64,000 nt of DNA, taken from NCBI GenBank assembly GCA_045535095.1, contig JAZSKY010000071.1:2095-66094 (forward strand), given 5' to 3'. The notes below the pieces were generated by a model, which was not told the origin of the DNA, searched no databases, and was given only the letters and a program-made list of their open reading frames with translations. Both the position numbers and the translations under genes were made by a program. The DNA comes from Eubacteriales bacterium. Its GTDB lineage: Bacteria; Bacillota; Clostridia; Oscillospirales; CAG-272. Shown here piece after piece: positions 45,924 through 62,698 of this stretch. Positions within the stretch are counted from its first letter, which is position 1. Every line of letters begins with the position of its first letter.

Positions 45924-45963
45924 GACAAAACAACCCCCGATGCAGAGATCTTCCGCATCGGGG
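45924..45963 (-). terminator. Intrinsic terminator ending the pilus operon
   Basis: Minus strand: CCCCGATGC, an 11-nt loop, GCATCGGGG, then GTTGTTTTGTCTG. Confidence 0.75.
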
Positions 45964-45969
45964 TTTGGC

Positions 45970-46554: not shown

Positions 46555-47507
46555 ACGCTCTTCCTCTTTCCGAGGAGTCCGACTGCAACGAGTACGCTAC
46601 CCGAGGCTATCATCAGAAGAAGATACGCAAGCGTATTTGACGTATCGCCCGTATCGGGAGGCGTATCGGGATAACCCGGGCTATCGGGGTCGTAGGTATT
46701 GGTCAGAACGAAGGCTCCGTCCCTCTTTTCGATGCTTGCGGTATAGCCGCTCGGGACGTTTCGCTCGGCGACAGTCCAGCTCGAGCCGTCGTTTTCGGCG
46801 CTCCAGCTGTACGTCCAGTTATTTGATGCCGAAAGAGTTGCCTTTTTATAGCTTTTTCCGTCGCGGAAGATCTCAATTTCAACGCTCTTCGGGCGGTCAC
46901 GACCCTCGTCACCCTTCCAAAGCTTTACTACCTTGATCTCGATCTTCTCGTCCGAATCTACGGGAGGAAGAAGCTCGGTTTTGGCGTAAATGGGGACGTT
47001 ATACTGCCACTTTCCGTCCACTCCCGCGTCAGGAAGAGAGATGAGTACGGGGGCGCAGCCATAGCTTTCAGAGTCTATTACCGTCTGTCCGACTGTGGCA
47101 AAATAAAGTCCGCAATCGAGCGAGGAGAACGTGACCTCTCCCCTATCGTTTGTGATCTGCTCGCTATCACACTCTACCCCGTTTGCAACGATATACGATT
47201 CGAGCGTCGAGGAGACTACCCGCCATTCACTCGACGAGCGGATCCCGTTTAAAATGAGTCCCGTACCGCTGAATTTTCCGCTGAGAGTATAGCGCACGTC
47301 GGGCGAAACGTCGGCGATCTTATAGAGCTTTACTTCAATATTTGCAAAGTCGATCACACCGTACTCATAGGTAATATTAAGCTCGCATTTTTGATTTGTA
47401 TCTATAAGCTGAACGGCATCTCCCGTCGGAGCGGAAATCACGCAAAAAGGCACGAGAATTGCGCAAAAACAGATTAAAGTTGCAATTATCACTATTCTTT
47501 TTCGCAT
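46551..47507 (-). CDS. Basal/minor pilin with a Cna-B domain and a PPDTG sorting signal
   Basis: 318 aa with a signal peptide. VKLWKGDEGRDRPKSVEIEIFRDGK...WTYSW...VPSGY. The C-terminus is PPDTG plus a TM and KRKSV. Confidence 0.75.
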   Translation of the reverse strand: MRKRIVIIATLICFCAILVPFCVISAPTGDAVQLIDTNQKCELNITYEYGVIDFANIEVKLYKIADVSPDVRYTLSGKFSGTGLILNGIRSSSEWRVVSSTLESYIVANGVECDSEQITNDRGEVTFSSLDCGLYFATVGQTVIDSESYGCAPVLISLPDAGVDGKWQYNVPIYAKTELLPPVDSDEKIEIKVVKLWKGDEGRDRPKSVEIEIFRDGKSYKKATLSASNNWTYSWSAENDGSSWTVAERNVPSGYTASIEKRDGAFVLTNTYDPDSPGYPDTPPDTGDTSNTLAYLLLMIASGSVLVAVGLLGKRKSV

Positions 47508-48373
47508 TGTTTTTCCTCCTTGTTTGGTGTGACTTTATTAGTATTTTTATTCTTCGGTGGCTCTCTGTACTTAACGAGCAGATGGATAAGAAGCACGAAA
47601 AGCATGGGCGCGGCAACTGCCGGAGTTACCACGAGAGGCTCTATTCTGAAGGCTTCGTTTGAAACGTAAATAACCGATTTTTCCTTAACCGTTTCGATAC
47701 GCTTACCGCGCACGAGAAGTCTATGCGTATTGATTCCGTAGGGTGTGCAGGTAAAGAGCGTACAGTAGTCCTCGCCCTCGATTATCCGCAGATCGGACAC
47801 CTCATCCGGCCTTATGACCTTTACCATATCGACCTGATAGGTCAGCACCTCGTCAAGAATTATTATGCGGAATGTATCTCCCTTTTCCATTCTGTCAAGG
47901 TCTGTAAAGAGCTTTGAGGAGGGCAGTCCTCTATGCGCCGACAGAACGCTGTGCGTGCTTTCTCCGCCGACGGGAAGGCTCGTTCCCTCAAGATGTCCGA
48001 CACCCATATTCAGAACGCTGTCCGACGTGCCGTGATAGACGGGAAGCTCGACGCCTATTCTGTCTATTTCAAGGTATCCCATCATTCCGTTGCCCGTGAT
48101 GTTGAGAGCCTCGTTGTAGCCCGAAATACTGCCGTAATTCGACAGAGGATTTTTCGTGTTGTAAAGCGCGTCGTTATACGCGCGAGCGTCGCTACGCAGT
48201 TTTTCATACTCCTCTGCGCTCATCTGATTTAAAACCGACTCGTAGTCAACGATAGCGCGGCTTTGCGTCTTACTGTTCCAGTAGTCGCTGATAGTCGGAT
48301 ATAACAGAATGCAGACGCCTATCAAAAAACCAAGCGTCAAAAAAATCACTGTTTTGTGCCTTTTCATAAGCAT
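47492..48373 (-). CDS. srtC: Class C (pilin-polymerising) sortase
   Basis: 293 aa. LSAHRGLP, TLFTCTPYGINTHRLLVRG, and a C-terminal TM. Confidence 0.92.
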   Translation of the reverse strand: MLMKRHKTVIFLTLGFLIGVCILLYPTISDYWNSKTQSRAIVDYESVLNQMSAEEYEKLRSDARAYNDALYNTKNPLSNYGSISGYNEALNITGNGMMGYLEIDRIGVELPVYHGTSDSVLNMGVGHLEGTSLPVGGESTHSVLSAHRGLPSSKLFTDLDRMEKGDTFRIIILDEVLTYQVDMVKVIRPDEVSDLRIIEGEDYCTLFTCTPYGINTHRLLVRGKRIETVKEKSVIYVSNEAFRIEPLVVTPAVAAPMLFVLLIHLLVKYREPPKNKNTNKVTPNKEEKQCEKE

Positions 48374-48395
48374 CTCCTCTCCGTTATATTTGTAA

Positions 48396-48423
48396 GGGAG
48401 GAAAGGAGATCTCCTCTCCTCCC
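48396..48423 (-). promoter_or_regulatory. Strong hairpin between the major pilin and sortase genes
   Basis: Near-perfect palindrome GGGAGGAAAGGAGATCTCCTCTCCTCCC (14 bp with one mismatch). Its pyrimidine arm is complementary to the sortase SD GGAGAGGAG at 48374-48382. Confidence 0.35.
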
Positions 48424-48444
48424 CTACACGTTTAAAAGGTCAAA

Positions 48445-50235
48445 TCAGTCGTTATAAACCGACATCTTCTTATGAGTGATAAGAAGAACTGCAAATCCCA
48501 TAACGAGAAGCGTACCGATAGTGATCATCCAGAAGGTGCCCATTCCACCGGTGGAAGGAAGCACTACGCCCTTGCTGTTGTGAACAACAGTAGAGGTAAG
48601 GTCATATCTGATCTCCTTGTGAATGCCGTCCTCAGTCTGAATGTCTGCAACGTTTCCTTCGGTATCAGCAAATACGGAGAACGCTCTGGTTCCCTTTCCA
48701 ACCTCGAGCGGAACGGGATCTACGATAGCGTTATATCCTGCGGGAGCCTCAACCTCCTTGATGTAGTAGGTGCCTTCCTTAAGACCAAGAATAACGATCT
48801 TACCGTTGATAGGAGTTACTGCGTAGTTGTCCTGAGTTTCGCCGTTAAGGTACTCTGCAAGACCTGCTGCGTATATAGCTCTCGTTGTATCCTTGTTAGC
48901 GCCGCTGATGCCCTCGATAGCGGTGTAAAGGCTATCTACTACGTAAACGCCGTCAACGTCGGTAGGAATGATAAATACGGGAGTGGTGCATGTCTCGTCG
49001 CTGTAAATGCGGAACTTTGCGCCTGCAAGGTTCTTGCCGGTTGCGTAATCGTCCTTGAGAAGTCCGATACCGTAAACGTAGGTTACAACCTCATCGGGAG
49101 TGGTGTAATCGGTCTCGTTTGCGCTCGTCCAGGAAGCGTATGCCTTGTTGAAACGGTTGCCGTGGGTGGTGCTTCCGATAGAAGCGTTAGCCTCAACAAC
49201 TGCATCGTAAGTAATCTCTACCATAGAGGGAGAAGTGAACTTGGATGCTGCGTTTTCGGGGTAGGTAAGCGAGTAGGAAACGTCTTCACCCGATCCCTGA
49301 GTCTTAAGAGTGTGTCCCTCAAGCCACGGAATGGTGATACGGAAGAGGTCTTCGCCAAGGTGTACGAGGTACCACTGTGCGTCGTTTTCGTCACGCTCTG
49401 CTTCAGCAATATCGCTCCAGTCGCCGAGATAGTCCCAGCCATCGGTGTTTTCTCCACCCTGCGAGAGATAGTATCCGTGGGGAAGATACTCGCCGCCTAC
49501 CGAAACCGTGAAGCTTTCGAACTCAACCCAGATAGCGTCGCCCTTTTCATCGTGGATCTGGTAGTACAGGATCTTCTTGTCGCCACTGTAATTGGTAGCC
49601 TCGAAGGAAACCTTGTACTCAACCTTGTCGCCGATGTTTGCGCTGTTGCTGTCGCCCCAGATAGGCTGGTCGTTTTCGTCAACGCCGATCTTGATCTGCT
49701 TGTTGAAATTGTTACCGGGAGCCTGGTTCTTATCGATGATCTCAACGTCGGGGGTGTTGGAGTTGATGGTTACTGCTGCGCCGAGAGAGCTGGTTACGAG
49801 GTAGTATCCGTAAGGAAGATCCTCGAACTTAACCTCTGCGTCGGTTGCTACTACGGGAGCAGCGGCAGCGGTGTAGCTTCCGTCCTTTACAAGCTTCGTG
49901 AGGTAATCAACGAGCTTGGCATCGTCAGCGCCTTCCTTCTTGGAAACCGAGCCGGTATTTTCGTTGTAAACGAAATAGGTGTTCTCGGTCTTTCCGTCAG
50001 CGCCGAAGAGAACTGCAAAGAACTGGCTGTCTTCTGTGATGCTGTAAGATACAGCGTCGGTGTTACCCTCGTCATCTACGCTGATGCTTGCATCGAAGAT
50101 CTTGTAGATAGTGTAGGTCTCGTCAACGGTTGCGTTGGTTATGGTAATAGAACCGGTATTTTCTTCAGCGAAAACAGAGATGCCGAGAGAAAGAACGATT
50201 GCTGCTACCATAACAAGGGATAAAAGTTTTTTCAT
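48445..50235 (-). CDS. Major (backbone) pilin, SpaA-type, LPSTG-anchored
   Basis: 596 aa with a signal peptide. E-box-like YYIKEVEAPAGY. The C-terminus is LPSTGG plus a TM and HKK. Confidence 0.85.
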   Translation of the reverse strand: MKKLLSLVMVAAIVLSLGISVFAEENTGSITITNATVDETYTIYKIFDASISVDDEGNTDAVSYSITEDSQFFAVLFGADGKTENTYFVYNENTGSVSKKEGADDAKLVDYLTKLVKDGSYTAAAAPVVATDAEVKFEDLPYGYYLVTSSLGAAVTINSNTPDVEIIDKNQAPGNNFNKQIKIGVDENDQPIWGDSNSANIGDKVEYKVSFEATNYSGDKKILYYQIHDEKGDAIWVEFESFTVSVGGEYLPHGYYLSQGGENTDGWDYLGDWSDIAEAERDENDAQWYLVHLGEDLFRITIPWLEGHTLKTQGSGEDVSYSLTYPENAASKFTSPSMVEITYDAVVEANASIGSTTHGNRFNKAYASWTSANETDYTTPDEVVTYVYGIGLLKDDYATGKNLAGAKFRIYSDETCTTPVFIIPTDVDGVYVVDSLYTAIEGISGANKDTTRAIYAAGLAEYLNGETQDNYAVTPINGKIVILGLKEGTYYIKEVEAPAGYNAIVDPVPLEVGKGTRAFSVFADTEGNVADIQTEDGIHKEIRYDLTSTVVHNSKGVVLPSTGGMGTFWMITIGTLLVMGFAVLLITHKKMSVYND

Positions 50236-50327
50236 GGTAAAAAATCCTTTCTAAAATAAAATTTTCTTAATTTGTGTGTCGGATCAGTTTGGCGCATAAA
50301 CAGTTTTTACGCCACTTTGCGGAGGCC

Positions 50328-52622
50328 TTACCCCGATGACCTCCTTTCGCGCTTATGCCTCAAGCTGAGTCCGTATATCAGCGGAATTATCATAAACAAA
50401 ATTCCGCAGAATATATAAATCTGATTACCCCTTCCGCCCGTTGCGGGGAGCTCTACTAATTTTCCTGTGTTTTTATTCGTAACCTTCCAGTTTCCGTCCG
50501 ATGCTCCCTTGTACATAAATTTGTCGCTATGAGATGAACCGTATGTATCGTAAAGCAGAAGGTCGGGGTTGTCCGTATAATTCAGGGTTATCCTCATTGA
50601 ATTCTGGGTGTCACCAAAGGTGATATCATAAGGGCGGGGTGCGGCGATCTCACTCAAGGTGTACGTTCCCGGAAGAAGATTTTCAAAGGAAACTCTTCCG
50701 TTTTCGTCCGAGATTATTTCTATTGGTGTAAACGAGTTATCGTTATATTTCGTCAGACTGAACACGGCTCCCTTTATCGCAAAGCCGAAGTCCTCGTCTA
50801 TTTTGGTGAAATGAATATCGTAGAGAAGTCCTCTTACGTACGGGACCTGAAAATTCATACGCAAAGACGTGTTCGGATCGTCAGAAAAATGATAAATAAG
50901 AGTTGCGGATCTGTTCGTCGGATAGACGTGATCGCAGTTTGAAATTGAGCAGGAGGTGTTCAGACACTCAAGACAGCTCTTATCGTTTTTCAGTCTGATC
51001 TTATAAACAAGCTGAGCCGCGTTTCTTTGCCACTCCTCGCCCGAGTCCTCCGACGCGACCAACATCTCCAGATGATTCGGATGCCAGGTCAGCACACCGT
51101 TTTCAAAGGTTGGCAGATCGGTATAGTCGCCTGCGAGAACTCCTACGAACTCGATATTATCGCCCATTGTATCAACAACGCTTTCGAGTACCGTATCTAT
51201 AACCGAGATGCGTTCAAATCCGCTTCCGCCGTTTGAGGTCATCATACTTTCGGTCATCTGAATATATACGGGGTTTGATGCAGAGGTTCCCTGATAGTCC
51301 TTAACGTTCGCAACAACGATTGCCTGAGACGAATCGGGAATCTGAAGCAGTATCTTTCCGTTTTTCATACCCTTATTAGAGTATCTTGTGATTACGCCAC
51401 TTTCAGAGAGCAGCTGGGTCTTACTGTCATTCCAGATCTGTATTACCATATAGAAGCTTGAGCTTGCAGATCCGGTCGGATTTACAAACAGCTGCGAGGG
51501 GTTTCCCTGGCTAAGAGAGGTGATCTCGCCCACCGATCCGTTTGCCGCGGACGCATAGTAGGTTCCGTATTCAAACACCGTATTCCACGAGAGCTTTTTA
51601 TCAATGCTCAGGTACACGAGAAACTCGTTTTCGACAGCGGTCGGAACGACGTTCTTCTGCACGAGCACGTTTTCATTACCGATCTTATGTATCTCCTCGC
51701 GACCAAGATATCCGCCCGAAACGATCTGCCACGAATTCTTATCGGTCGTTGTCAGAAACGAGCCTATAATATCGGTGCTACCGCTACTTTCGAGCATCAC
51801 ATCAACGCTGTCAAGCGAAAGCTCGGGTTGGCGCGAGTCGATATTTACGTATCCGACAATTCTCGGATCGTCTATCGGAAGGATAACCTCGGACACCGCG
51901 TTCTCCCAGTCTCCGCCGACTGCAAGAATCTGCTGTGAGGAGGATGCTGTGACAATTAAAATCTTATCCGCTTTCGTATTTTCGTCGGCATCAAGGAATA
52001 AGATGTTTCCGATCTTACCGACGTTTTCGTCGGGAGACAGGAATATTCCTCTTTCCTCCAGACGCCGAAGCATAACGTACACACCCGAGCTTATCGGAAT
52101 CAATTCACGCGGAATGCCTGCATAATCAAGGCAGAATGCAACGAACATAGCCGACCAGTCTCCATACGGGTTACCGTACCACTGACCGTAGCGCGTAATT
52201 CCCTGCTTTGTAATACCGTCGTCTGCAAGACTGTAATTTCTTTCGCTTTCGGTGTATCCGATCTGCGATCTGGCGATCAGAGCGAGGTTATCCGCCCATC
52301 GCGCGTAATACTGATTTGGCAGGGTTGCCTCCCAGTCCTCCGCCGTCTCCACGTCCGCCTTGGGATCGGAGTAGCAGGAAATGCTGTGAAGATGCTCTAC
52401 CTTTTCGCATATCAGAGTGTCACTCCGGAAGCATTCCTCGCTATGGCGATGCTCGGTATAGCCGCAGGTTGCATCGTTTGCAATCGCAACTCCCGTCCTA
52501 CGCAGATTCCATACGGTTGCAAACGCTATGAGAAGGGACAGTGCCGTAAGTGCGGCTACGATGCGTCGAAAGCGTCTTTTTTCACTATTCAGTTGTACAA
52601 GGTACTGTTCAACGACACCCAT
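50328..52622 (-). CDS. Pilus tip adhesin with an N-terminal Cys/His motif and a CHAP-like module, LPATG-anchored
   Basis: 764 aa. CGYTEHRHSEEC...CEKVEHLHSISC. YGQWYGNPYGDWSAMFVAFCLDYAG. C-terminal GTYTLSEIAAPRPY and LPATGG plus a TM and RHKRERR. Confidence 0.7.
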   Translation of the reverse strand: MGVVEQYLVQLNSEKRRFRRIVAALTALSLLIAFATVWNLRRTGVAIANDATCGYTEHRHSEECFRSDTLICEKVEHLHSISCYSDPKADVETAEDWEATLPNQYYARWADNLALIARSQIGYTESERNYSLADDGITKQGITRYGQWYGNPYGDWSAMFVAFCLDYAGIPRELIPISSGVYVMLRRLEERGIFLSPDENVGKIGNILFLDADENTKADKILIVTASSSQQILAVGGDWENAVSEVILPIDDPRIVGYVNIDSRQPELSLDSVDVMLESSGSTDIIGSFLTTTDKNSWQIVSGGYLGREEIHKIGNENVLVQKNVVPTAVENEFLVYLSIDKKLSWNTVFEYGTYYASAANGSVGEITSLSQGNPSQLFVNPTGSASSSFYMVIQIWNDSKTQLLSESGVITRYSNKGMKNGKILLQIPDSSQAIVVANVKDYQGTSASNPVYIQMTESMMTSNGGSGFERISVIDTVLESVVDTMGDNIEFVGVLAGDYTDLPTFENGVLTWHPNHLEMLVASEDSGEEWQRNAAQLVYKIRLKNDKSCLECLNTSCSISNCDHVYPTNRSATLIYHFSDDPNTSLRMNFQVPYVRGLLYDIHFTKIDEDFGFAIKGAVFSLTKYNDNSFTPIEIISDENGRVSFENLLPGTYTLSEIAAPRPYDITFGDTQNSMRITLNYTDNPDLLLYDTYGSSHSDKFMYKGASDGNWKVTNKNTGKLVELPATGGRGNQIYIFCGILFMIIPLIYGLSLRHKRERRSSG

Positions 52623-52652
52623 AATGCCCTTTCCTTTTAGTGTTTTAAAATC

Positions 52653-53246
52653 CTATGTCTTAAAAACTCCTATGCTCTTAAACGGCCATACTCTGAAAAA
52701 GACCTTTCCGACTATCTGATCCTTCGGAATACAACCGATAAGTGTATTGCGCGAGTCAACAGAGCTTTCGCGCATATCTCCTATTACAAAATACTGCTCG
52801 GGCGGTACCTGATAGGGAAATTCAAGGTCACATTCGCCAAGCGACGCGTTACTGACGTACGGCTCGTCAAGCTTTTCGCCGTTTAAGTAAACGGTGCCGT
52901 CAACGTCTATCTCGATCCAGTCGCCCGGAAGTCCGATAACGCGCTTTATAAGGAGCTTGTTATTCCACGTAAATCCGCAAAGATCTCCGCGTTCAAAACG
53001 CGTTGTCTTTGTGAGAAGAACTATGTCGCCACCCGACAAAGTCGGCTCCATACTCGTTCCCTCTATTTGAAGAACGGGTAAAAGAAGGGTCGCGACAAGC
53101 ACCGCAACTGCGGCAACTACGGTCAAAACGTAGATAGTTCCGCGCAGCGCCTTGTTGTACGCCTTCTGGCGGCGGTACCTTTTTCTCTCGGTTTCGACCT
53201 GCTTTTTAGTGGGGAGCGAGACCTCCCTGTTTTTTCTTTTCAGCAT
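52653..53246 (-). CDS. Type I signal peptidase (pilus-operon associated)
   Basis: 197 aa. EGTSMEPTL (Ser box), LIKRVIGLPGD (Lys box) and GDMRESSVDSR. Confidence 0.9.
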   Translation of the reverse strand: MLKRKNREVSLPTKKQVETERKRYRRQKAYNKALRGTIYVLTVVAAVAVLVATLLLPVLQIEGTSMEPTLSGGDIVLLTKTTRFERGDLCGFTWNNKLLIKRVIGLPGDWIEIDVDGTVYLNGEKLDEPYVSNASLGECDLEFPYQVPPEQYFVIGDMRESSVDSRNTLIGCIPKDQIVGKVFFRVWPFKSIGVFKT

Positions 53247-53252
53247 CTTATC

Positions 53253-53594
53253 TCACCCGTTTTCCGCAAGAGTCTTGGCGTTTTCTACGATCTTTTCAGC
53301 CTCTTCCCTTGCCAGAGCAAGTATTCTTTCCTTTTCGGCATTTGCCTCGTCGAGCATACTTTTTATCTCGCTAAGATACTGATCTGCGGCGCTCTGCGCA
53401 CTTTTGAAGCAGTCGTTGATCTCAAGAACTGCCTCGGCGATATTTCCCGCCTCGCTGATGCGAAGTCGCTTATCTGCAAGCGCGTCCTCAAGGGCGCTTT
53501 TTTCCTCGTTAAGGCTATCCACCTGAAGCTGAAGCTGATATATGATATCTATAAGCTGCGCCCTGCCAAGGCGCCTGAATTCCTTGTCCGTCAT
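53253..53594 (-). CDS. Hypothetical coiled-coil protein
   Basis: 113 aa, heptad-rich (LQLQVDSLNEEKSALEDALADKRL...). It is the first gene after a consensus promoter. I recognise no family. Confidence 0.5.
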   Translation of the reverse strand: MTDKEFRRLGRAQLIDIIYQLQLQVDSLNEEKSALEDALADKRLRISEAGNIAEAVLEINDCFKSAQSAADQYLSEIKSMLDEANAEKERILALAREEAEKIVENAKTLAENG

Positions 53595-53627
53595 ATTACA
53601 AACGTCCTTTCTGCTTTTTATCCTATT

Positions 53628-53656
53628 ATTATATCACCTTCGTCATTTTTTGTCAA
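53628..53656 (-). promoter_or_regulatory. Consensus sigma-A promoter of the pilus operon
   Basis: Minus strand: TTGACA (53656-53651), a 17-nt spacer, then TATAAT (53633-53628). It lies about 34 nt upstream of ATG 53594. Confidence 0.75.
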
Positions 53657-53676
53657 CCAAAATCGAAAAAAGTGAC

Positions 53677-54849
53677 TTAAAATTCCAGGGTATCGACCTT
53701 ATCAAGAAGCATGCCGAGCATTTCCTTGCATCTTGCAATTCTTGCAGGGCTATCCGCCTCGTCGGGGTGACGGAGAGAGCGGCGGAGTATTCTTGTGTAT
53801 CCGATTACCTTTGCCTTCTCGAGCACCGCGCGGCAGAGCTTATCATCCGACGTGCCAAGGTACATTCCAAGCGCGGTATTAAAGAATTTTTCGGACGTTT
53901 CGTGAGTATATCCGAAGAATCTCTCGGTCGTGCTATGATCGTGCTCTGCGTAGCCGATAGCCGCGTTGAACATCGAGCCGATCTCGAAAATGGGGTGTCC
54001 CATACAAAGGGTATCCATATCAATAAGAAGCCCCTCGCCGTTTTGTACCATAACGTTATTTGTGTGATAATCGCCGTGAAGGAGGGTGTTCTGCTTCGGA
54101 ATCGCCTCTATCAGCGCGCGAAGCTTGTCGCCCTGCTCCTTCGGAAGATGGGGAGATACGAATTCTGCCCAACCGAGCGCGATCTCCTTCATATCGGGGA
54201 CCTCTCCGTCCTCGACCTCGACCGCGTGTATGCTACGGAGCATATCAACGTAATATTTTGCCGCCTCGGATATATCGTCCTGATTATCCCTTATAAGCTT
54301 CGTTACACTAACTGCGTTCAAAAGCTCGGTAACGGTGCCGTATCCCTCGTCAACTCTGACGATTCCGTACGGAATTGCGGTATTTATGCCAAGAATGAAG
54401 GCGCGTCTTGCGTTTTCTCTTTCCTGCTTTATCTCAGGGAGGGCGTCCTTTGCGAAATAAATCTTGAGTATGGTTTCGTCGTCATATCTGTAAACCGCTC
54501 CGTTTGCTCCCTTCGCGATAAACTCACAGCCCTCGACGCTCATTTTTCTATACGCCTTTTCGATAGTCAGCATATCGGTAAAGCCTGTCATATCAAAAAC
54601 CTCGTAAACGTCGGGAGCGACGTTTATAATGGCGAGCTTCGGCTCTTCCTTGCGAAGTCTGAGTATCACACGCAGTCCTGCGCTCGACACATATTCAAGC
54701 TTATCGGCATCGAGAACGGTATGCTTTCCGGGATTTTCGCTCTTGATACTGAATATCATTTCCTCTGCCTCGCCGGCATTAGTGGCGTCTATTCTTCCCT
54801 CAAGCGCGATATACAAAATGCTTTTATCTATTCGGTATGTAATATTCAT
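53677..54849 (-). CDS. STAS domain fused to an APH/choline-kinase-type phosphotransferase domain
   Basis: 390 aa. The N-terminal ~100 aa are STAS (LEYVSSAGLRVILRLRK...VYEVFDMTGFTDMLTIE). The remainder is kinase-like (GANGAVYRY..., LLHGDYHTNNVMV, LIDMDT). Confidence 0.8.
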   Translation of the reverse strand: MNITYRIDKSILYIALEGRIDATNAGEAEEMIFSIKSENPGKHTVLDADKLEYVSSAGLRVILRLRKEEPKLAIINVAPDVYEVFDMTGFTDMLTIEKAYRKMSVEGCEFIAKGANGAVYRYDDETILKIYFAKDALPEIKQERENARRAFILGINTAIPYGIVRVDEGYGTVTELLNAVSVTKLIRDNQDDISEAAKYYVDMLRSIHAVEVEDGEVPDMKEIALGWAEFVSPHLPKEQGDKLRALIEAIPKQNTLLHGDYHTNNVMVQNGEGLLIDMDTLCMGHPIFEIGSMFNAAIGYAEHDHSTTERFFGYTHETSEKFFNTALGMYLGTSDDKLCRAVLEKAKVIGYTRILRRSLRHPDEADSPARIARCKEMLGMLLDKVDTLEF

Positions 54850-55418
54850 TATTTGTCTTCCTTTCCAAAAACAAGACCCGTGAGCGTGTTATATTCGATC
54901 CACGCGGACGTATCCGAGAGACGGGAGGTGAGATGCGCAACCGAGCGGTAATACCACGCCTGCTCGGAGGCATCCTTCTGATTGAATCTCTGCCACATCT
55001 TCTCTCCCTCGACCTTGAAATCGCGATAGATAGCGCGCATATTTGCGAGCTTATCGCCAAGCCAAAGGGCTAAAACGTCGGTATCGTCTGTGTTTTTGAG
55101 AATTTCGAGAGTCTCCTCCTTGCGTATTCTCCAAGTTTCCGAGGGATCGATCTCTTCTCTTTTGTTCTCGGTCTCTGCCGCGACAAGCTCTCTTACGCGA
55201 CTGCCGAATTTCTCCTCGATCTCATCAAGAGTGATTCCCGCATCCTCTACAACGTCGTGCAGAGCGGCGGCGGCTATAACTCTCTGATCGCAGGTGATAG
55301 TTCCTACGATAACTGCCGCCTCCATAGGGTGAAGAATATAAGGGGCGTCACTTTTCTTACGTCGCATTCCGTCGTACGCCTTAACCGCAAATACGACTGC
55401 CTCGCTTGCAAGCTCCAT
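54849..55418 (-). CDS. HD-domain protein resembling RelA/SpoT-type (p)ppGpp hydrolases (small alarmone hydrolase-like, HD_4)
   Basis: 189 aa. PYILHPMEAAVIV and AAALHDVVEDAGITLDEIEEKFGSRVRELV. TAATG overlaps at both ends. Confidence 0.7.
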   Translation of the reverse strand: MELASEAVVFAVKAYDGMRRKKSDAPYILHPMEAAVIVGTITCDQRVIAAAALHDVVEDAGITLDEIEEKFGSRVRELVAAETENKREEIDPSETWRIRKEETLEILKNTDDTDVLALWLGDKLANMRAIYRDFKVEGEKMWQRFNQKDASEQAWYYRSVAHLTSRLSDTSAWIEYNTLTGLVFGKEDK

Positions 55419-55708
55419 TACTCGATCACCAGAATATCGGCAAAGCCGGTCATTTCAAATACTTCCATAACAAGCTCGCAAACGTTTGTGAGCTTCATCG
55501 ACGATTTGAGCTTTTTCTGTGCGGAGAGGAGGACGCGGAGTCCTGCGCTCGATACGTATTCAAGTCCTGCGCAGTCGATAGTGAGACTGTCTATGCCGCA
55601 GATATGTGAGTTAATAAAGCCGTCAAGCTCGGGGGACGTAACTGTATCAAGGCGTCCGATAACGCTGACCTTCAGCGCGGACGCGTTCTTTTCAAACTTA
55701 ATTTCCAT
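55418..55708 (-). CDS. STAS-domain anti-sigma-antagonist-like protein
   Basis: 96 aa. LEYVSSAGLRVLLSAQKKL...VMEVFEMTGFADILVIE. Confidence 0.88.
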   Translation of the reverse strand: MEIKFEKNASALKVSVIGRLDTVTSPELDGFINSHICGIDSLTIDCAGLEYVSSAGLRVLLSAQKKLKSSMKLTNVCELVMEVFEMTGFADILVIE

Positions 55709-55719: not shown

Positions 55720-56319
55720 TTATGCAAACTTTTTAACTATAACGATGCTTACACAGCTTCCCTTTACGCCTACGATAACGTCGTCGGAGGCGGAAGCGAT
55801 CACAGACTTTTCAAGCTCGTCCCATTCTTCTGCCTTTTCGGTGGGGCTTACAGAGCTTCTGTACCGGTCAAGACTCCAGTAGTAGGAGAAGTCCATACCG
55901 CCCGAGAATCCCGATGCCATACGCGCGTGGTCGGTCGATGCGGCAATAGCCTCCATACTCTCGCTATCAAGGAAAAGGTCCTCAACTGCCGAGCGGATCT
56001 TTCCGACGATTCCGACAGCGGCGGCGTTTTTCTTATTCTTTGAAACCTTGATAAGCTCTTCCTTCTTCTCTGCGGTCATCTCGGAGAGCTTTATGGAAAC
56101 ACTCAGAGTGCATACGCCGTTTTCATACTCGAACCACATCTCGCCGTCAAAATCGTCAACGATGCTCGGGAGCATTCCGTCGGTCTCCTCGCAGAGCAGA
56201 CGAAGCTGAAGTGTCTGCTTATGATTTAGTCCGATATACGCCGCAAATCTCTCGCTTTCGTCGAGAATTGCCGCAAGGTCCTTAGTGCCTTTTTCTATTT
56301 TGCATACGTTTGATTTCAT
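55720..56319 (-). CDS. Hypothetical protein inside the partner-switching operon
   Basis: 199 aa, soluble, with an RBS. Its N-terminal ~80 aa loosely resemble the start of RsbW/SpoIIAB-type HATPase proteins (LQLRLLCEETDGML...GVCTLSVSI), but no ATP-binding boxes are visible. Confidence 0.6.
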   Translation of the reverse strand: MKSNVCKIEKGTKDLAAILDESERFAAYIGLNHKQTLQLRLLCEETDGMLPSIVDDFDGEMWFEYENGVCTLSVSIKLSEMTAEKKEELIKVSKNKKNAAAVGIVGKIRSAVEDLFLDSESMEAIAASTDHARMASGFSGGMDFSYYWSLDRYRSSVSPTEKAEEWDELEKSVIASASDDVIVGVKGSCVSIVIVKKFA

Positions 56320-56340: not shown

Positions 56341-56637
56341 TTATTCAATATCGAAAATGTCGGCAAATCCGGTCATTTCAAAAACTTCCATAACCTCTTC
56401 GCAAACGTTTCTAACCTTCATTGAGCCTATCTTCTGCATCTTCTTCTGTGCCGAGAGAAGAACGCGAAGTCCTGCGCTCGATATGTACTCTACACCCTTG
56501 AGATCAAGAATGAGATTTTTGGTGTCGCCTATATCCTCGTTTATCGTTTTATCAAGAGCAGGAGCGGTAACGGTATCGAGTCTGCCTACGATCTCGATGA
56601 TCGTCTCCTGCGCGTTTTTTATTATTTCTATTGTCAT
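56341..56637 (-). CDS. STAS-domain anti-sigma-antagonist-like protein
   Basis: 98 aa. VEYISSAGLRVLLSAQKKM...VMEVFEMTGFADIFDIE. Confidence 0.88.
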   Translation of the reverse strand: MTIEIIKNAQETIIEIVGRLDTVTAPALDKTINEDIGDTKNLILDLKGVEYISSAGLRVLLSAQKKMQKIGSMKVRNVCEEVMEVFEMTGFADIFDIE

Positions 56638-56650: not shown

Positions 56651-59485
56651 TTATATCTTTTTGATCATAGTCAGAATGTTTTCGCCGTTTTCGTACGCGT
56701 AGCTGAGGGTATCCATGGTTTTCTTCGTGATGAAGATACCGAGTCCGCCTATCTCGCGCTCGTCTGCAGAGAGAGTAGTGTCGGGATCGGGCTTCTTCAG
56801 AGGATCGAAGGGGATTCCCCTGTCTGCCATACGGAAGGTGATATTTCGGCTTTCACCGTCGAAGGCAATAGAGATATCCACGTCGCCTTCTCCGCCCTCG
56901 TAAGCATAGTGAGCAACGTTGACAAATATTTCTTCGATCGCAACGCATATTGCAGTCTGCGCCTTCATAGGACATTCAAATCCCGAGAGCGTTTCCTCAA
57001 CAAAGGAAATAACGTCGCCGAGTGCCTCGGTCTTCGCCGGGAACGTTTTATTTATCATTTGCTCACCTCCTTTTTTGGGTTTAAAATCAAGCATAAGCAT
57101 CGTAATATCGTCAAACTGCGGAGATTCTCCGACAAATTCGTCAATATTTGCTTTAAGCATAGGTAAAAGCTCGGTCGCTTCCGTGGAAGCGTTTTTATTC
57201 ATAAAGTCAAGGAGTCTCTCCTCACCATAGAGCTTGTTTTCGGTGTTGGTCGCCTCGGGCACGCCGTCTGTGTAGAGGAAGATCCTATCTCCCGCCTCAA
57301 GCGTTATCTCGCCCATTTTGTAGCAGATGCCCTCCATACCTGCAAGAACGAAGCCTGCGCGTGTCTTGAGGTATTCAAACGAGCCGTCCGCACGCTTCAG
57401 AAGGGGCGGATTATGTCCTGCGTTTGCAAACTGTACCTTTCCGCTCGAAAGATCGAGAATGCCCATCCAAGCGGTGACGAACATACCCGACTCGTTATTT
57501 TCGCAAAGCTTTTCGTTCGCCTTGGTGAAAATATCGTTTACCGCCATACCGCTTTCTGCAAGGTCCTTGATGATCGTTTTCGCGGTCATCATAAACATTG
57601 CGGCAGGTATTCCCTTGCCCGAAACGTCGGCGGCAAGGAATGCTACCGTATTATCGCTCAGCTTATAGAAATCGTAGAAGTCTCCTCCGACCTCCTTTGC
57701 GGCGATCATTTCGGCATAAATGCGGTACTCATCGTCCTTCGGGAAGTTGGTCGGGAGTGCGGAAAGCTGTATCTGCTTTGCGTACTCAAGCTCCTTGTCG
57801 ATACGCGCCGCCGCCTCTGCAATATAGCGCTTGAGGGTTGCAACGGTGGAGTTGATGTCGTCCGAAAGCGAGGAAAATTCCTCGTTCGAGCGAACGTTTA
57901 CCTCTACGCTGAGGTCACCCTCGGTGATACGTCCGAGCGTATCGTTTATTTTCTTTAAGTTATTGATGATGACTCTCTTTATGAGTATGTAGATGAACAC
58001 GAACAGCGCGGCAAATATAAGCACCTGCATAAAGACGCTCGTATAAAGAGATGCGTCGCGCATGAACATTGCCTCGGACTCGGGCATTGCCGCGATAATA
58101 CAGTAGCCTTCAACGAACTTGAAAACATACATATATTTTTCGCTCTCGGCGCTGTTTGTGTCCACAATATCCGCAGGATAAAGGTCGGTTGCGGTACTAC
58201 CCGTCTCCATTTCGAGGGAAGGAGTGATTCCGATAGTGGAAATGTGACGTCCCGAATACTCGTTATCAATTACAAGATTGAGCTTATCGTCGCAAACGGC
58301 AACGAGGCCGCCCGTTCCGACGTGTCTGTTCTTGGTGACGTCAACCACGAACTCGTTGAGCATTGCGTGGAACTGCTCCGCGTCGTATCCGACCTGAATG
58401 AATCCGCCGCCCTGAAGTCTTACCGCCGCGTATTTTCTCCATTCGGACTCGTCTTTTCCGCGTCGGCTATACTCCTGAACGAAGGAGTCTTGTATTTTGA
58501 GCATATCAACGAATTCCTTTGACTGCTCTTTACTGTTCATATCGTAAACGCCTATAACGTCATCTTCATTTGAGTCTATTATAATGCCGCTATCGTCAAC
58601 TACGTTGATCTCCTCGACACCGTACTTCTGAACGAGAAGGTCGAGATCGCTAAATCCGCTCTCGTACTCGATCTTAACCTTTTCGGCAATATCGAGAAGC
58701 TGTGCGTCCGATTTTTCCTTGATGTCGGTCTCGACGTCGTCCATTGCGGCGGTAAAGACCTCCTTGGTCTCGATCTTTACCATTCTGTTCTGAAGAATAT
58801 AGGTGAAGGAGCTCGTTACCAAATATGCAATAACGATACAGAGAAGAAGCCATCTCTGGAAGGTGTTTGCGATTCTTTCGCTTCCCTTTTTACGGGTGAA
58901 GCGCTCGTGACTGAGAAGGGATACTATGATGATGGCGCATCCGACAGCCACAGCGTTTCCGAGTATCATCGGGAAGGTTGCACCTTTGACAAATTCAAAG
59001 GCGTATGAGGAATCCTTCATATTCGTCAAGAATATAAGGATCATGTGGATAACCTCGCAGACAACGGCGATACAAACTCCGTATCCCCACGTCGGCTTCT
59101 TGTTATCAAACATAAGCTTACGAAGTCCTGCCGCCATAAAGCCTGCGAGAACTGTCGCTACGCTACACGCAAGGCGCGTATATTCTCCTCCGCCCCAGAA
59201 TACCGAGAACCAGCGGTAAAGTCCGCCGATAAATCCCGAGATTATACCTGCGGGCGCGCCGAAGATAAGTCCTGCCGAAAGGGGCGCCGCATCACGGACG
59301 TTCACCGTCGTTCCGAGCCAGTCCACGCCATAGCTTGACGCAAAGGCTGAAACGCCGCCGAAAAGAAGTCCGATAATTATCTGCTTTACCGCGTAAGGCA
59401 GCTTCTTTAAGGGTGTGTACTTATCCGCAATATATACTGCAAGGACAAGAAGACAGTTAATTAATACCGGAATTGCAAGTCTCAT
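56651..59485 (-). CDS. Membrane sensor with 5TMR-LYT-like N-terminus, extracytoplasmic domain, HAMP, PP2C (SpoIIE) phosphatase and C-terminal RsbW-type HATPase kinase domain
   Basis: 944 aa. VNVRDAAPLSAGLIFGAPAGIISG (LytS-type TM module). HAMP around ITEGDLSVEVNVRSNEEF. PP2C GGDFYDF...ADVSGKGIPAAMFM...LYTDGVPE...FDDITMLM. The last ~135 aa are HATPase_c_2-like (AIEEIFVNVAHYAY...DRGIPFDP...GGLGIF). Confidence 0.85.
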   Translation of the reverse strand: MRLAIPVLINCLLVLAVYIADKYTPLKKLPYAVKQIIIGLLFGGVSAFASSYGVDWLGTTVNVRDAAPLSAGLIFGAPAGIISGFIGGLYRWFSVFWGGGEYTRLACSVATVLAGFMAAGLRKLMFDNKKPTWGYGVCIAVVCEVIHMILIFLTNMKDSSYAFEFVKGATFPMILGNAVAVGCAIIIVSLLSHERFTRKKGSERIANTFQRWLLLCIVIAYLVTSSFTYILQNRMVKIETKEVFTAAMDDVETDIKEKSDAQLLDIAEKVKIEYESGFSDLDLLVQKYGVEEINVVDDSGIIIDSNEDDVIGVYDMNSKEQSKEFVDMLKIQDSFVQEYSRRGKDESEWRKYAAVRLQGGGFIQVGYDAEQFHAMLNEFVVDVTKNRHVGTGGLVAVCDDKLNLVIDNEYSGRHISTIGITPSLEMETGSTATDLYPADIVDTNSAESEKYMYVFKFVEGYCIIAAMPESEAMFMRDASLYTSVFMQVLIFAALFVFIYILIKRVIINNLKKINDTLGRITEGDLSVEVNVRSNEEFSSLSDDINSTVATLKRYIAEAAARIDKELEYAKQIQLSALPTNFPKDDEYRIYAEMIAAKEVGGDFYDFYKLSDNTVAFLAADVSGKGIPAAMFMMTAKTIIKDLAESGMAVNDIFTKANEKLCENNESGMFVTAWMGILDLSSGKVQFANAGHNPPLLKRADGSFEYLKTRAGFVLAGMEGICYKMGEITLEAGDRIFLYTDGVPEATNTENKLYGEERLLDFMNKNASTEATELLPMLKANIDEFVGESPQFDDITMLMLDFKPKKGGEQMINKTFPAKTEALGDVISFVEETLSGFECPMKAQTAICVAIEEIFVNVAHYAYEGGEGDVDISIAFDGESRNITFRMADRGIPFDPLKKPDPDTTLSADEREIGGLGIFITKKTMDTLSYAYENGENILTMIKKI

Positions 59486-59497: not shown

Positions 59498-60457
59498 TTA
59501 TTTAAGCAGCAGTATCAGATCCCAGACGTAGCTGGCAATCAGATTTCCGATAATACCGAGTGCCATAAGCAGAACCATATATATAAGCATACTGCTCTTG
59601 CTTATCGAGTTTTTCGCGATATTATAGTAGAAGCTGAAATGTCCCTGCATATTATCCTCGCGGCTCTGCTGCCACTGATAGGTTATAACGTCCTCGCTGT
59701 CGTAGGATGCGGGAAGATATTCCCTATACAGATTCTCCTCAAGGCGTCTGATACGGTAGCAGCCTGCATCGTTAAGCTCATAGCTTTCGTCAATAGAGAT
59801 GGTAATTACCGCCTTTTTGAGCTTCTGACGGTGGAAAGATCCTATTCGTGTGATCTCCTCGGGCAAAAGTCTCGACTCGTTGATACGAACCGAATATCCG
59901 TATTTTTCGGAAATTACCGGAGTTGTGAGAAGGTCTCTGAGTCTGTCTATCGCGTTTCCGACACTTGCGCGCGATCTGAAGATGCCGTCCAGAGTCTTAT
60001 GGGGCATACGCCAGATGAAATACGCTTCGTCGTTGTCGAGATACTCGCCGAGTCCCTCAAGGTCAAAGGTGAGAAGTGTGCCGTCTGCAAGAGACCTCGT
60101 TTCGTATTTGAGTGTGCTTATATGTACTATATCCACCGTTTTGCCGTTATAAGCAATTTCGGAGGTGTGTATATTTTTCTTAAAGTCAACAATACACGCC
60201 GCGCTGAAGGTCGCCTGCAATATTTTAGTATCGTTAAAAAGCAAGGAGAGATCTTCTATTTCGTCACACGAAACAGTAAACGGGATATAAACGCTGACGC
60301 ATTTACTCGCCTTTACTCCGCGTATGCGCAGAGCGAAATCGACGTAGCTTTTTCCCTTGGGATTTAACCAGTCGTTGATGTAAACGGTGCTCGTATCGTC
60401 ACCGTCAACCCAGACAGCCCAGCCGTCGTCGGCGTATTTTTTATATTTTTTAGCCAT
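59498..60457 (-). CDS. Hypothetical C-terminally membrane-anchored protein, first gene of the partner-switching operon
   Basis: 319 aa. I recognise no motif. There is a single C-terminal TM (MLIYMVLLMALGIIGNLIASYVW). Its stop lies 12 nt before the GAGGTGA-ATG of the sensor gene. Confidence 0.6.
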   Translation of the reverse strand: MAKKYKKYADDGWAVWVDGDDTSTVYINDWLNPKGKSYVDFALRIRGVKASKCVSVYIPFTVSCDEIEDLSLLFNDTKILQATFSAACIVDFKKNIHTSEIAYNGKTVDIVHISTLKYETRSLADGTLLTFDLEGLGEYLDNDEAYFIWRMPHKTLDGIFRSRASVGNAIDRLRDLLTTPVISEKYGYSVRINESRLLPEEITRIGSFHRQKLKKAVITISIDESYELNDAGCYRIRRLEENLYREYLPASYDSEDVITYQWQQSREDNMQGHFSFYYNIAKNSISKSSMLIYMVLLMALGIIGNLIASYVWDLILLLK

Positions 60458-60749: not shown

Positions 60750-61088
60750 TTACGCCTTCTTTGCAGAAGCGATCTTCTGAACAAACAAAGCGATAAGCAG
60801 AACAACGAACAGAGCCGCGCCTATCTTGTGAACGATCGAGAGAGCGGCAATTCCGTGAGACGCCTTGATGATAATTCCGCTGATGAGCGCGACTAAGTAG
60901 CAAGCTCTCATAATGATCTCGAGTGCGGGAATCTTCCAGCTCTTTTTAGTCAGAACGGTGTACGCCACGAGAACGAGAACGCCAACGAGCGAGAGTGCGA
61001 TGTGTGCGGTCATTCCGGTTGCTCTGAGTAAGAAAAGCAGTACGCCTATCGCGAGAAGAACGGGGGTGAAAATAAGGTCCTTTTTCAT
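60750..61088 (-). CDS. Hypothetical 4-TM membrane protein
   Basis: Start re-set to MKKDLIFTPVLL (ATG 61088) after AAAGGAG. 112 aa. Confidence 0.55.
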   Translation of the reverse strand: MKKDLIFTPVLLAIGVLLFLLRATGMTAHIALSLVGVLVLVAYTVLTKKSWKIPALEIIMRACYLVALISGIIIKASHGIAALSIVHKIGAALFVVLLIALFVQKIASAKKA

Positions 61089-61107
61089 AATTTTAACTCC
61101 TTTTATT

Positions 61108-61791
61108 TTATTTATCAGTTTTTTTCTTGCCGAGTCTGTCAAGTCCGAGGAAGATAAATCCTACGAGAACGAACGCGGCAGCGAGAATACCGATCCACAT
61201 AAGAACACCGTTCACGCCCTGCGTATCAAGATTTACGAAGAAATAGGGATAGATCAGGGGTGTTGTGGAGGTGGGAATCAGTATAGAAGAGTCAAATCTC
61301 AAAATGATCGCCTGAATGAGAAGGAAGATCACGTAAGCAAGAGGAAACGCTATCGACGAGACAGGATAATACCACTTGCATTTTCCACGCTCGTAGAAGA
61401 GAAACCAGTCTGCTATGTACATAATGGGGAGAACCACGTGGAAAATAAGACTTCCTATACGCCAGTTAAGCTGGGGATCGCGTCCCTCTGCGCCTGCAAG
61501 CATAATGTTGAACACAAGGAAAGTGAGCAAAATGCCGAGCATTCCGATAAATTTGAGTATAGGCGCCGCGCTGACGAAGCTGTCCGACGGCTTCTTTACC
61601 GTCTGAATAAGAGCCGCGAGCATAACGCCGATACAAAGGAAATTACTGATGTTTGTGAAGTGTACGTAGAAGTCCCAGCGTATCTGATTTATATTGTCAA
61701 ATATACCAAGACTTGCGATAGTTCCGACAAATCCCAAGGTGAGATATACGGTCTGATAAATGAGCTGTGCCGTTCTGTTTTTGATCATTTT
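61108..61791 (-). CDS. Pr6Pr/FAR-17a-like integral membrane protein
   Basis: Start re-set to MIKNRTAQLIYQ (ATG 61791) after AAAGGAG. 227 aa, 6 TM segments. HFTNISNFL motif. Confidence 0.55.
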   Translation of the reverse strand, partial: KMIKNRTAQLIYQTVYLTLGFVGTIASLGIFDNINQIRWDFYVHFTNISNFLCIGVMLAALIQTVKKPSDSFVSAAPILKFIGMLGILLTFLVFNIMLAGAEGRDPQLNWRIGSLIFHVVLPIMYIADWFLFYERGKCKWYYPVSSIAFPLAYVIFLLIQAIILRFDSSILIPTSTTPLIYPYFFVNLDTQGVNGVLMWIGILAAAFVLVGFIFLGLDRLGKKKTDK

Positions 61792-61871
61792 TTTCTCCTT
61801 TCGTAAAACAAAAAACACTTTCCCTATGATACTGTCCATTCTAACACGAAAGCTGTGACAAACCTCTTACA

Positions 61872-61915: not shown

Positions 61916-62698
61916 TTATTTATTTCTTTTTCTTTCCCAAAGAAGTCCGCAGGTGTTCTCTGCCCAGCTGTACTGATACATATACTCGCCAAGAAATTCG
62001 GGCTTTCCGCATTTCAGGTAATTATAATAATCACAGTCGATCTTCTCGGGATTTATCGAATAGAGATAATTGTTTCTCTCGAAAACGCCTCCCATTCCGA
62101 CAGAGTCGAGCGTCTGTCTGAGGTCGCGGAAGAGCTGGTGGATATAGTTATGATTTTTCTGCTCCTCGTCATTCTCCCAAAGCGCAACTCCGATCTCGGC
62201 AACCGTGACTCCCGCTCCGTTTCTGTCGATCAGAAAGGCAAAAAGCTCCTTTGTCTTTGAGCGCTTGAAGGTCAGCTTTTCTCCGTTTGCATACACCTCG
62301 AAAGTTCCGAAGCAGGACGCAACGAGCGGCTTTTCCTTGCGGCGTATTCCCTTGATATTGTCGATCTCTGCCTGAACGTCAGAGGCGGAAACCGGCTTCA
62401 TAAGATAGCCTGACGCGTGAAGCCTGAACGCAGGAATGGCATATTCCTCGTATCCCGTGCAAAAAACGATCTTACAGTCGGGACAGAATGAGACTATCTT
62501 CTCGGCGAGCGCAAGTCCGCCCATTCCTCGCATATTTATATCCAAAAATGCGACGTCTATCGGGTTTTCCCTGACAAAGCCGAGCGCTTCCTCACAGTCG
62601 GAAAATTTACTTAGCTCGGTAATATCGTCCGACGCCTCAATAGCTGACGCAAGTGCTCTCAGCATAAGTATCTCGTCATCAACTGCGATTGCGATCAT
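61916..62698 (-). CDS. Two-component response regulator (receiver plus winged-helix/SARP-like output)
   Basis: 260 aa. IAIAVDDE...DVAFLDINMRGMGG...KPV. The C-terminus FEVYANGEKLTFKRSKTKELFAFL is OmpR/SARP-like. Confidence 0.8.
   Translation of the reverse strand: MIAIAVDDEILMLRALASAIEASDDITELSKFSDCEEALGFVRENPIDVAFLDINMRGMGGLALAEKIVSFCPDCKIVFCTGYEEYAIPAFRLHASGYLMKPVSASDVQAEIDNIKGIRRKEKPLVASCFGTFEVYANGEKLTFKRSKTKELFAFLIDRNGAGVTVAEIGVALWENDEEQKNHNYIHQLFRDLRQTLDSVGMGGVFERNNYLYSINPEKIDCDYYNYLKCGKPEFLGEYMYQYSWAENTCGLLWERKRNK

Follow-up and report, generated by a model that had tools for sequence, protein, structure and literature searches.

A STAS domain fused to an APH/ChoK-type kinase is encoded with partner-switching proteins and an alarmone-hydrolase-like enzyme in gut and rumen Bacillota

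The STAS-APH gene, its domains and its operon

We describe here a gene that joins a STAS domain to an APH/ChoK-type kinase (STAS-APH), and the operon to which it belongs, in a 64,000-nucleotide stretch of contig JAZSKY010000071.1 (GenBank assembly GCA_045535095.1) from a CAG-272 member of the Eubacteriales; this whole stretch is called the window below, and all positions are numbered within it. The ORF (open reading frame) listing of the window gives the gene as one unbroken ORF at exactly 53677..54849 on the minus strand, 390 amino acids (aa) plus a stop. It is the final gene of its operon, all of which is read from the same strand.

The N-terminal part (aa 1-99; 54553..54849, minus strand) is a STAS domain of the SpoIIAA/RsbV type. 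It matches PF01740 at aa 3-99 in a Pfam scan (E 8e-12) and lies above cutoff, with 60.1 bits against 53.45, for the NCBIfam anti-sigma-factor antagonist superfamily model TIGR00377; a profile of the family finds SpoIIAA-type chains in the PDB at E 8e-15 to 1e-12. The motif VSSAGLRV occupies aa 54-61, and alignment to PDB 1th8_B and 1auz_A puts Ser56 (codon 54682..54684, minus strand), the predicted phospho-acceptor, at the position of the SpoIIAA phospho-serine, Ser58.

The remainder (aa 105-390; 53680..54537, minus strand) is an APH/ChoK-type kinase domain, matched by PF01636 at aa 108-299 (Pfam scan, E 1e-19). From conservation and from reading of the protein, Lys129 (codon 54463..54465) is the ATP-anchoring lysine of strand beta3, which with E143 makes up the beta3 Lys/alphaC Glu pair of the bilobal kinase fold. 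The catalytic loop or Brenner motif, H258-G-D260-Y-H-T-N-N265 (HGDYHTNN, aa 258-265; 54055..54078), and the metal-binding motif I276-D277-M-D-T280 (IDMDT, aa 276-280; 54010..54024) were read directly from the DNA, again on the minus strand. The catalytic set is complete in K129, E143, H258-G-D260...N265 and D277, and the kinase is predicted to be catalytically competent. The first-pass annotation of this DNA had recognised both a STAS domain with a conserved serine in VSSAGLRV and an APH/ChoK-type kinase with HGDYHTNN and IDMDT; both identifications are upheld, the first by the Pfam and TIGR00377 matches and by Ser56 falling at the SpoIIAA phospho-serine, the second by the PF01636 match and the motifs in the DNA. 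The check by domain hidden Markov models that it had proposed finds PF01740 and PF01636 together in the 390-aa ORF, and the C-terminal domain keeps K129, E143, H258, D260, N265 and D277 on alignment.

An AlphaFold2 model built from a 131-sequence alignment has a mean pLDDT (predicted local distance difference test) of 97 and a pTM (predicted template modelling score) of 0.89. It comprises a whole STAS fold, b1-b2-a1-b3-a2-b4-a3-b5 with pLDDT >95, and then a bilobal kinase fold; the high pTM suggests that the two domains are held in a fixed mutual arrangement.

From the Pfam and NCBIfam matches and the ORF listing, the gene order of the operon, 5' to 3', is sensor, STAS, 199-aa protein, STAS, HD_4 and STAS-APH. 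The first gene (56651..59485, minus strand) encodes a 944-aa membrane sensor of four domains: 5TMR-LYT (aa 33-188, E 7e-24) and HAMP (aa 502-552), followed by a PP2C/SpoIIE phosphatase (aa 611-801, nucleotides 57083..57655, SpoIIE E 8e-50) and an RsbW-type Ser kinase domain, HATPase_c_2 (aa 815-942, nucleotides 56660..57043, E 7e-24), all by Pfam. The NCBIfam RsbW and SpoIIAB models also match the sensor, both below cutoff. Two single-domain STAS proteins follow, one of 98 aa with the motif YISSAGLRV (56341..56637, minus strand; PF01740 E 1.5e-17) and one of 96 aa with YVSSAGLRV (55418..55708, minus strand; PF01740 E 1.4e-11), so that all three STAS domains of the operon carry Y(V/I)SSAGLRV; the fused domain is 39% identical to its single-domain neighbour. 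The fifth gene (54849..55418, minus strand) encodes a 189-aa HD_4 phosphohydrolase of the small-alarmone-hydrolase type (PF13328, E 2e-19). Intergenic gaps in the operon are 11-21 nucleotides and the last two junctions are TAATG overlaps, in which the stop of the second STAS gene overlaps the start of HD_4 and the TAA stop of HD_4 overlaps the ATG of STAS-APH. A perfect sigma-70-type promoter, TTGACA-17-TATAAT with TG (12/12 consensus; 53628..53656, minus strand), lies just beyond the stop of STAS-APH; it opens the next transcription unit and so marks the 3' boundary of the operon. Neither the ORF listing nor Pfam shows a sigma factor gene in the operon, and PADLOC returns no anti-phage defence match for any of its proteins.

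The 199-aa protein encoded between the two single-domain STAS genes (55720..56319, minus strand) has no family match in Pfam, NCBIfam or PADLOC. Relatives of it, at 33-37% identity, adjoin RsbW-like and STAS genes in three other loci (L029, L059, L073), and it may be a further partner of the switch. A 469-aa ORF at 53542..54951 on the plus strand runs antisense to the entire STAS-APH gene; similar long antisense ORFs lie over other genes of the window, and this one is most likely a by-product of codon composition, not a gene.

Relationships of the kinase domain

Foldseek gives probability 1.0 to many APH, methylthioribose (MTR) kinase and ChoK structures. Its best matches are maltokinase, capreomycin and APH(2'') phosphotransferases, MTR kinase and a ChoK-family protein, at 11-17% identity, and APH(3') and APH(4) are also among the matches. 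Of the NCBIfam models, the best for the kinase domain is TIGR02172, an uncharacterised APH-like family, at 115.6 bits and so below its cutoff of 228.2; a single-sequence search of the PDB finds just a 50-residue catalytic-loop match, to hygromycin-B kinase. With APH(2''), APH(4), MTR kinase, maltokinase, choline kinase and the TIGR02172 proteins the domain shares the bilobal fold, the Lys-Glu pair, the HGDxxxxN loop and the IDxD metal site; unlike STAS-APH, all of these are without a STAS domain. No characterised substrate specificity could be assigned to it by sequence, profile or Foldseek searches of the PDB.

The name of its Pfam family, and the Foldseek matches to APH(2''), APH(3'), APH(4) and capreomycin phosphotransferases, might suggest that this is an aminoglycoside, macrolide or peptide antibiotic resistance phosphotransferase which bears a STAS domain incidentally. 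We consider this very improbable: identity to any APH structure is 11-17%, the NCBIfam resistance equivalogs for APH(3') and APH(6) score about 17 bits against cutoffs of 205-325 (NF033068, 17.0 bits vs 205; NF012171, 16.7 bits vs 325), and the family is chromosomal, spread vertically over many anaerobic Bacillota and found in a signalling operon, not in a resistance or biosynthetic cluster. An antibiotic-resistance APH was rejected as a candidate on the equivalog scores, and a Hanks-type Ser/Thr protein kinase on its motifs: the domain has no Pkinase match in Pfam and no HRDxKxxN, DFG or APE motif, carrying HGDYHTNN and IDMD instead.

Spread of the family and its gene neighbourhoods

In a word-indexed database search 7804 proteins match STAS-APH at E<=1e-5, and the best 120 of these are all of about 390 aa with PF01740 and PF01636; homologues are named at source as ‘anti-sigma factor antagonist’, ‘phosphotransferase’ or ‘TIGR02172 family’. 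Searched exhaustively with HMMER, the representatives of 50%-identity clusters yield 647 clusters at E<=1e-30, and among the best 150 representatives nearly all are full-length fusions at 32-51% identity. A scan of one genome per species gives at least 597 loci, whose carriers, mainly gut and rumen Bacillota, belong mostly to Oscillospiraceae, Acutalibacteraceae, Lachnospiraceae, Anaerovoracaceae/Mogibacterium, Erysipelotrichaceae and Christensenella; Coprococcus catus and Flavonifractor sp. An82 are cultured carriers, and the proteins are small and look soluble. Our literature searches found no publication on STAS-APH fusions or on TIGR02172. STAS-APH is thus a real, widespread and uncharacterised family, and an arrangement whose use of a partner-switching module had been called unusual turns out, from the numbers of clusters and of species-representative loci, to be that of a large family.

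Conservation was counted in alignments of 131-133 fusions at 29-51% identity. Ser56, K129 and D277 are each kept in 132 of 133 fusions and E143 in 125 of 133; H258, D260 and N265 do not vary at all. At least 90% of the fusions retain the SSAGLR loop of STAS and the glycine-rich loop, and the linker residues R101 and S104 are conserved as well. Conservation of the phospho-acceptor site and of the catalytic residues means that both are under purifying selection, which excludes a pseudokinase and an assembly artefact. A pseudokinase had been weighed as a candidate and was ruled out on the invariant catalytic residues. The artefactual explanation, in which two genes were joined by an assembly or sequencing error or the motifs were matched by chance, is refuted, and we allow it practically no weight, given thousands of independent full-length homologues, the conserved linker residues and the high-confidence AlphaFold2 model. 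The same thousands of homologues of identical architecture argue that the two halves are not separate ORFs.

Gene context was compared by tblastn, with the proteins of the window, in 80 species-representative loci. An additional STAS gene is present in every one (80/80), an RsbW-type kinase in 59/80 and a PP2C protein in 40/80, and at least one of the RsbW-type kinase, PP2C, STAS or HD_4 genes adjoins the fusion in 72/80. The order PP2C-RsbW-HD_4-[STAS-APH]-(STAS) recurs, as do STAS-PP2C-RsbW-[STAS-APH] and STAS-(PP2C)-[STAS-APH]-RsbW. In 15/80 loci (L011, L023, L025, L029, L036, L037, L040, L043, L047, L048, L049, L053, L059, L074, L078) STAS-APH and HATPase_c_2 form a single ORF of 518-558 codons, often with a free STAS gene just upstream; here the entire switch would be condensed to one polypeptide and one free STAS protein. 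The RsbW-type kinase domain is also fused in P0122, P0130 and P0131, P0122 having the order HATPase_c_2-STAS-APH. An RsbW-type kinase that lies next to STAS-APH, or is fused with it, is strong comparative evidence that this kinase is cognate to the fused STAS domain. Sigma factor genes do not figure among the recurrent neighbours in the 80 loci, though one may lie at a distance.

These data bear on the earlier proposal that the kinase is gated in cis by its own STAS domain. The near-invariance of Ser56, the PP2C and RsbW-type kinase domains encoded in the operon, and the RsbW-type kinase in 59 loci (fused in 15) all fit with such control; the gating itself we still infer.

A protein kinase of the YihE/SrkA or CotS type, whose target was perhaps its own or a free STAS domain or HD_4, would share this fold, which is common to protein kinases. 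Weak matches to YihE (1zyl, E 9e-5), YtaA/CotS (2q83, 3e-4), SteC and the model NF008738 ‘serine/threonine protein kinase’ (E 0.002) would fit this, as would the lack of a nearby RsbW-type kinase in 8/80 loci and in the loci, described below, where HD_4 is itself fused to STAS-APH. However, those matches are short, cover the catalytic loop only and fall far under family cutoffs; the HGDxHxxN motif is without the Lys of eukaryotic-type protein kinases and there is no DFG or APE; and the top structural matches are small-molecule kinases. Moreover, the RsbW-type kinase that is adjacent or fused in most loci already supplies a STAS kinase, and what recurs as a partner is a phosphohydrolase of small molecules or nucleotides rather than a protein phosphatase. 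A protein kinase is, on this balance, an unlikely identity for the APH-like domain.

Putative phosphohydrolase partners of the kinase

In the PDB, the HD_4 protein encoded directly upstream of STAS-APH is matched best by RelH of Leptospira levettii (7qoe, E 1.8e-23). Present in this alignment are the motifs ilHP, lHDvvED and gDKlaN, which hold the His, His-Asp and Asp metal ligands. RelH is an active (p)ppGpp hydrolase for which these ligands are listed (PMC9293644). An HD_4 relative lies within the cluster in 41/80 loci, and in 38 it is directly upstream of the fusion. In a family of at least 25 clusters from independent contigs (603-615 aa, 49-78% identical) HD_4, STAS and APH are fused into one chain, a further lineage of this HD_4-STAS-APH type exists at 33% identity, and HD_4-APH fusions occur without STAS (P0326, P0378) or with a degenerate STAS domain in which the Ser position is Asn (P0332; L088 3833..5572). 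The catalytic residues of both enzymes are invariant across the HD_4-STAS-APH and HD_4-APH fusions; the fusions in which STAS is absent or degenerate indicate that the pairing of hydrolase and kinase can persist without the phospho-switch.

Like bifunctional Rel, which along with RelH, Mesh1 and SpoT is the nearest comparison for these proteins, the HD_4-(STAS)-APH fusions join a hydrolase and a phosphoryl-transferring enzyme in one chain; the difference is that here an APH-fold kinase takes the place of the RelA/SpoT-type pyrophosphokinase. No link between small alarmone hydrolases (SAHs) and STAS or APH was found in our literature searches, surveys of RelA/SpoT homologues (RSHs) mention none, and a paper on a Treponema SAH gives no gene context. 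In one locus (L086) a stand-alone RelA_SpoT synthetase gene (1948..3039, 363 aa) lies about 5 kb upstream of an HD_4-STAS-APH fusion, a single case that may be coincidence.

Other phosphohydrolases stand beside the kinase elsewhere. PHP proteins like TrpH/Cv1693 are neighbours in 6/80 loci (L029, L031, L048, L049, L053, L074; for example L048 7137..8006), and a STAS-APH-PHP fusion exists. Their best NCBIfam match, ‘3',5'-nucleoside bisphosphate phosphatase’, scores 111-119 bits against a cutoff of 400, and so below it, and their PDB relatives are 3e0f, 2yb1 and 7ug9. A second PHP-like type is directly upstream of the fusion in 2 loci (L008 8975..9976, L080 8963..9973) and a Cof-type HAD phosphatase in 1, where it overlaps the fusion start (L012 1282..1971). 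None of these 9 loci with a PHP or HAD neighbour has an adjacent HD_4 (0/9). One protein, P0163, is an HD-CE-STAS-APH fusion. Around it, and around the HD_4-STAS-APH fusions P0208 and P0288 and the HD_4-APH fusion P0332, we found no further conserved neighbour.

In species without an adjacent HD_4 the phosphohydrolase partner thus appears to be replaced by unrelated enzymes. Non-homologous phosphohydrolases (HD_4, two PHP types, HAD, HD-CE) beside a constant kinase make the pattern to be expected of an opposing kinase/phosphatase pair that acts on one metabolite. HD_4/RSH hydrolases cleave the 3'-pyrophosphate from (p)ppGpp and (p)ppApp, Mesh1 cleaves the 2'-phosphate from NADPH, and Cv1693/TrpH-type PHP enzymes cleave the 3'-phosphate from pNp. 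Both the HD_4 and the Cv1693/TrpH PHP families therefore act on ribose-phosphorylated nucleotides, which points, by association only, to a nucleotide-type substrate. This conserved pairing with a phosphohydrolase, by translational coupling in the window and by gene fusion elsewhere, is the strongest clue to function, and it was absent from the first-pass annotation.

The kinase-like domain could also be an input: it would sense a metabolite while its STAS domain titrated the RsbW-type domain as an anti-anti-factor, the output being HD_4 or a distant sigma factor. RsbR-type STAS proteins with sensor domains are an established class, HD_4 is the most frequent neighbour, and the free STAS in all 80 loci makes competition for one RsbW-type domain plausible. 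Yet the whole catalytic set is invariant family-wide, which would be needless in a pure ligand sensor; it is the kinase that is constant, HD_4 being missing in about half of the loci; and no sigma factor gene is conserved nearby. We therefore hold such an input role to be rather unlikely, though less so than that of a protein kinase.

A proposed sigma-less partner switch acting on an enzyme

The interpretation that we favour, and think reasonably probable, is that a sigma-less partner-switching module has STAS-APH as its enzyme output, which it switches via Ser56, and that this enzyme has a nucleotide 3'-(pyro)phosphohydrolase as its working partner. The membrane sensor, with its 5TMR-LYT and HAMP domains, combines a PP2C phosphatase with an RsbW-type Ser kinase. 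By homology to SpoIIAB, SpoIIAA and SpoIIE, the RsbW-type domain would phosphorylate Ser56 and the equivalent serine in both free STAS proteins; removal of the phosphate from STAS would fall to the PP2C domain, and the sensor would set the balance of kinase and phosphatase. The fused STAS domain, predicted to pack rigidly on the kinase, may then relay its phosphorylated or partner-bound state to the catalytic domain, the unphosphorylated form probably being the active one by analogy with canonical STAS proteins and with All4160 (discussed below). Kinase and phosphohydrolase (HD_4 here; PHP or HAD elsewhere) would act on one phosphorylated small molecule as a switchable pair, a joint action that we infer because gene order is conserved, translation is coupled and the genes are sometimes fused. 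The metabolite that they would control is probably nucleotide-derived. The role of the free STAS proteins may be to compete for the same RsbW-type domain, in what would be a true partner switch, or to regulate HD_4.

A number of observations weigh against this interpretation. There is no adjacent phosphohydrolase in 30/80 loci, the fusion stands alone with no adjacent partner in 8/80, and genes for PP2C or RsbW are lacking in the neighbourhood of the HD_4-STAS-APH fusions. What an HD_4 enzyme takes off is pyrophosphate and what an APH-type kinase adds is a single phosphate; the two are not obviously exact opposites. The kinase is not close to any characterised kinase, its identity to solved structures being the 11-17% given above, and the best kinase match of the family profile in the PDB (E 5e-7) covers the catalytic core only; its presumed substrate class comes through guilt by association alone. 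The AlphaFold2 model of the HD_4-STAS-APH fusion P0208, from a 29-sequence alignment, has a pTM of 0.54 and a disordered linker at 213-219, so that HD_4 looks to be flexibly tethered rather than docked in such fusions. Rigid docking of HD_4 on STAS-APH, which we had considered, is unsupported for the same reasons.

A more specific extension, which is conceivable and which we put forward with considerable doubt, is that the kinase makes, and the phosphohydrolase destroys, a phosphorylated nucleotide so far unrecognised as a signal, for example 3'-phosphorylated pNp, ppGp or pppGp, whose level is set by the sensor-driven STAS phospho-switch; the phosphohydrolase would be HD_4 or, in other species, a PHP 3',5'-bisphosphate-nucleotide phosphatase like TrpH/Cv1693. 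If true, gut and rumen Bacillota would widely possess a new alarmone-like pathway, whose messenger is made by a synthetase of kinase fold with no relation to RelA/SpoT enzymes.

Among systems studied by experiment, the nearest is All4160 of Anabaena PCC 7120, a STAS-glycosyltransferase in which phosphorylation of STAS by the kinase Alr3423 represses activity and the SpoIIE-type phosphatase HenR restores it (PMC13555669); a 2021 review gives All4160 as an example of STAS within a larger non-transporter protein (PMC8256260). In both cases an N-terminal STAS domain with a phosphorylatable Ser is fused to a C-terminal enzyme, and a SpoIIE/PP2C phosphatase and an RsbW-type kinase form a sigma-independent module that acts directly on that enzyme, which for STAS-APH we read from the genes alone. 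They differ in that All4160 is a sugar transferase of cyanobacteria whereas STAS-APH is an APH/ChoK-type kinase of gut and rumen Bacillota. In the operon of the window, unlike the All4160 system, phosphatase and kinase are in one membrane sensor and there are extra free STAS proteins and a conserved phosphohydrolase partner; in the STAS-APH family the RsbW-type kinase is, moreover, often fused. Control of an enzyme by a fused STAS domain, which had at first been thought unusual, has an experimental precedent in All4160 (PMC13555669).

With the SpoIIAA/SpoIIAB/SpoIIE and RsbV/RsbW/RsbU systems of Bacillus the STAS-APH operon shares a SpoIIAA-type STAS with the equivalent serine and an RsbW-type HATPase_c_2 and a PP2C domain encoded alongside. 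It differs from them in that no sigma factor is in the operon or conserved in the 80 loci, in that STAS is joined to an enzyme, and in that kinase and phosphatase are in a single polypeptide. Further sigma-less switches, with fused kinase-phosphatase regulators or with enzymes as outputs, are HsbR-HsbA of Pseudomonas, SypE-SypA of Vibrio fischeri (PMC10120452) and SiaABCD, in which the switch protein SiaC activates the diguanylate cyclase SiaD, a nucleotide-messenger enzyme (PMC8457831). Each has a STAS-like protein that is acted on by an RsbW-type kinase together with a PP2C phosphatase and whose target is something other than a sigma factor. In all three the switch protein is a separate molecule that finds its target in trans, whereas in STAS-APH it is fused to the target kinase.

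Partner-switching modules are usually read as regulators of sigma factors. In the STAS-APH family the same logic would be wired directly onto an enzyme in hundreds of species of gut and rumen Bacillota, the module often being condensed to a single polypeptide, either STAS-APH with an RsbW-type kinase or HD_4-STAS-APH. If confirmed, this would be a new output class for partner switching and might reveal a new regulated nucleotide metabolite tied to the stringent response in abundant, poorly studied anaerobes.

Around the operon, a two-component pair lies upstream (61916..63922, minus strand), comprising a PF06580-type (LytS/YehU-like) histidine kinase and a response regulator; between it and the operon are two unannotated membrane-protein-like ORFs (60750..61839) and an unassigned 319-aa ORF (59498..60457). 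Just downstream of the operon is a sortase-dependent pilus cluster (46551..53246, minus strand), with genes for a Cna_B protein, a sortase, a SpaA-type pilin with LPSTG and a tip-pilin-like 764-aa protein with LPATG, and then a signal peptidase I gene. The G+C content is 0.35-0.42 at 24001..28000 and 38001..46000, against about 0.48 in the rest of the window, and these stretches may be horizontally acquired gene clusters.

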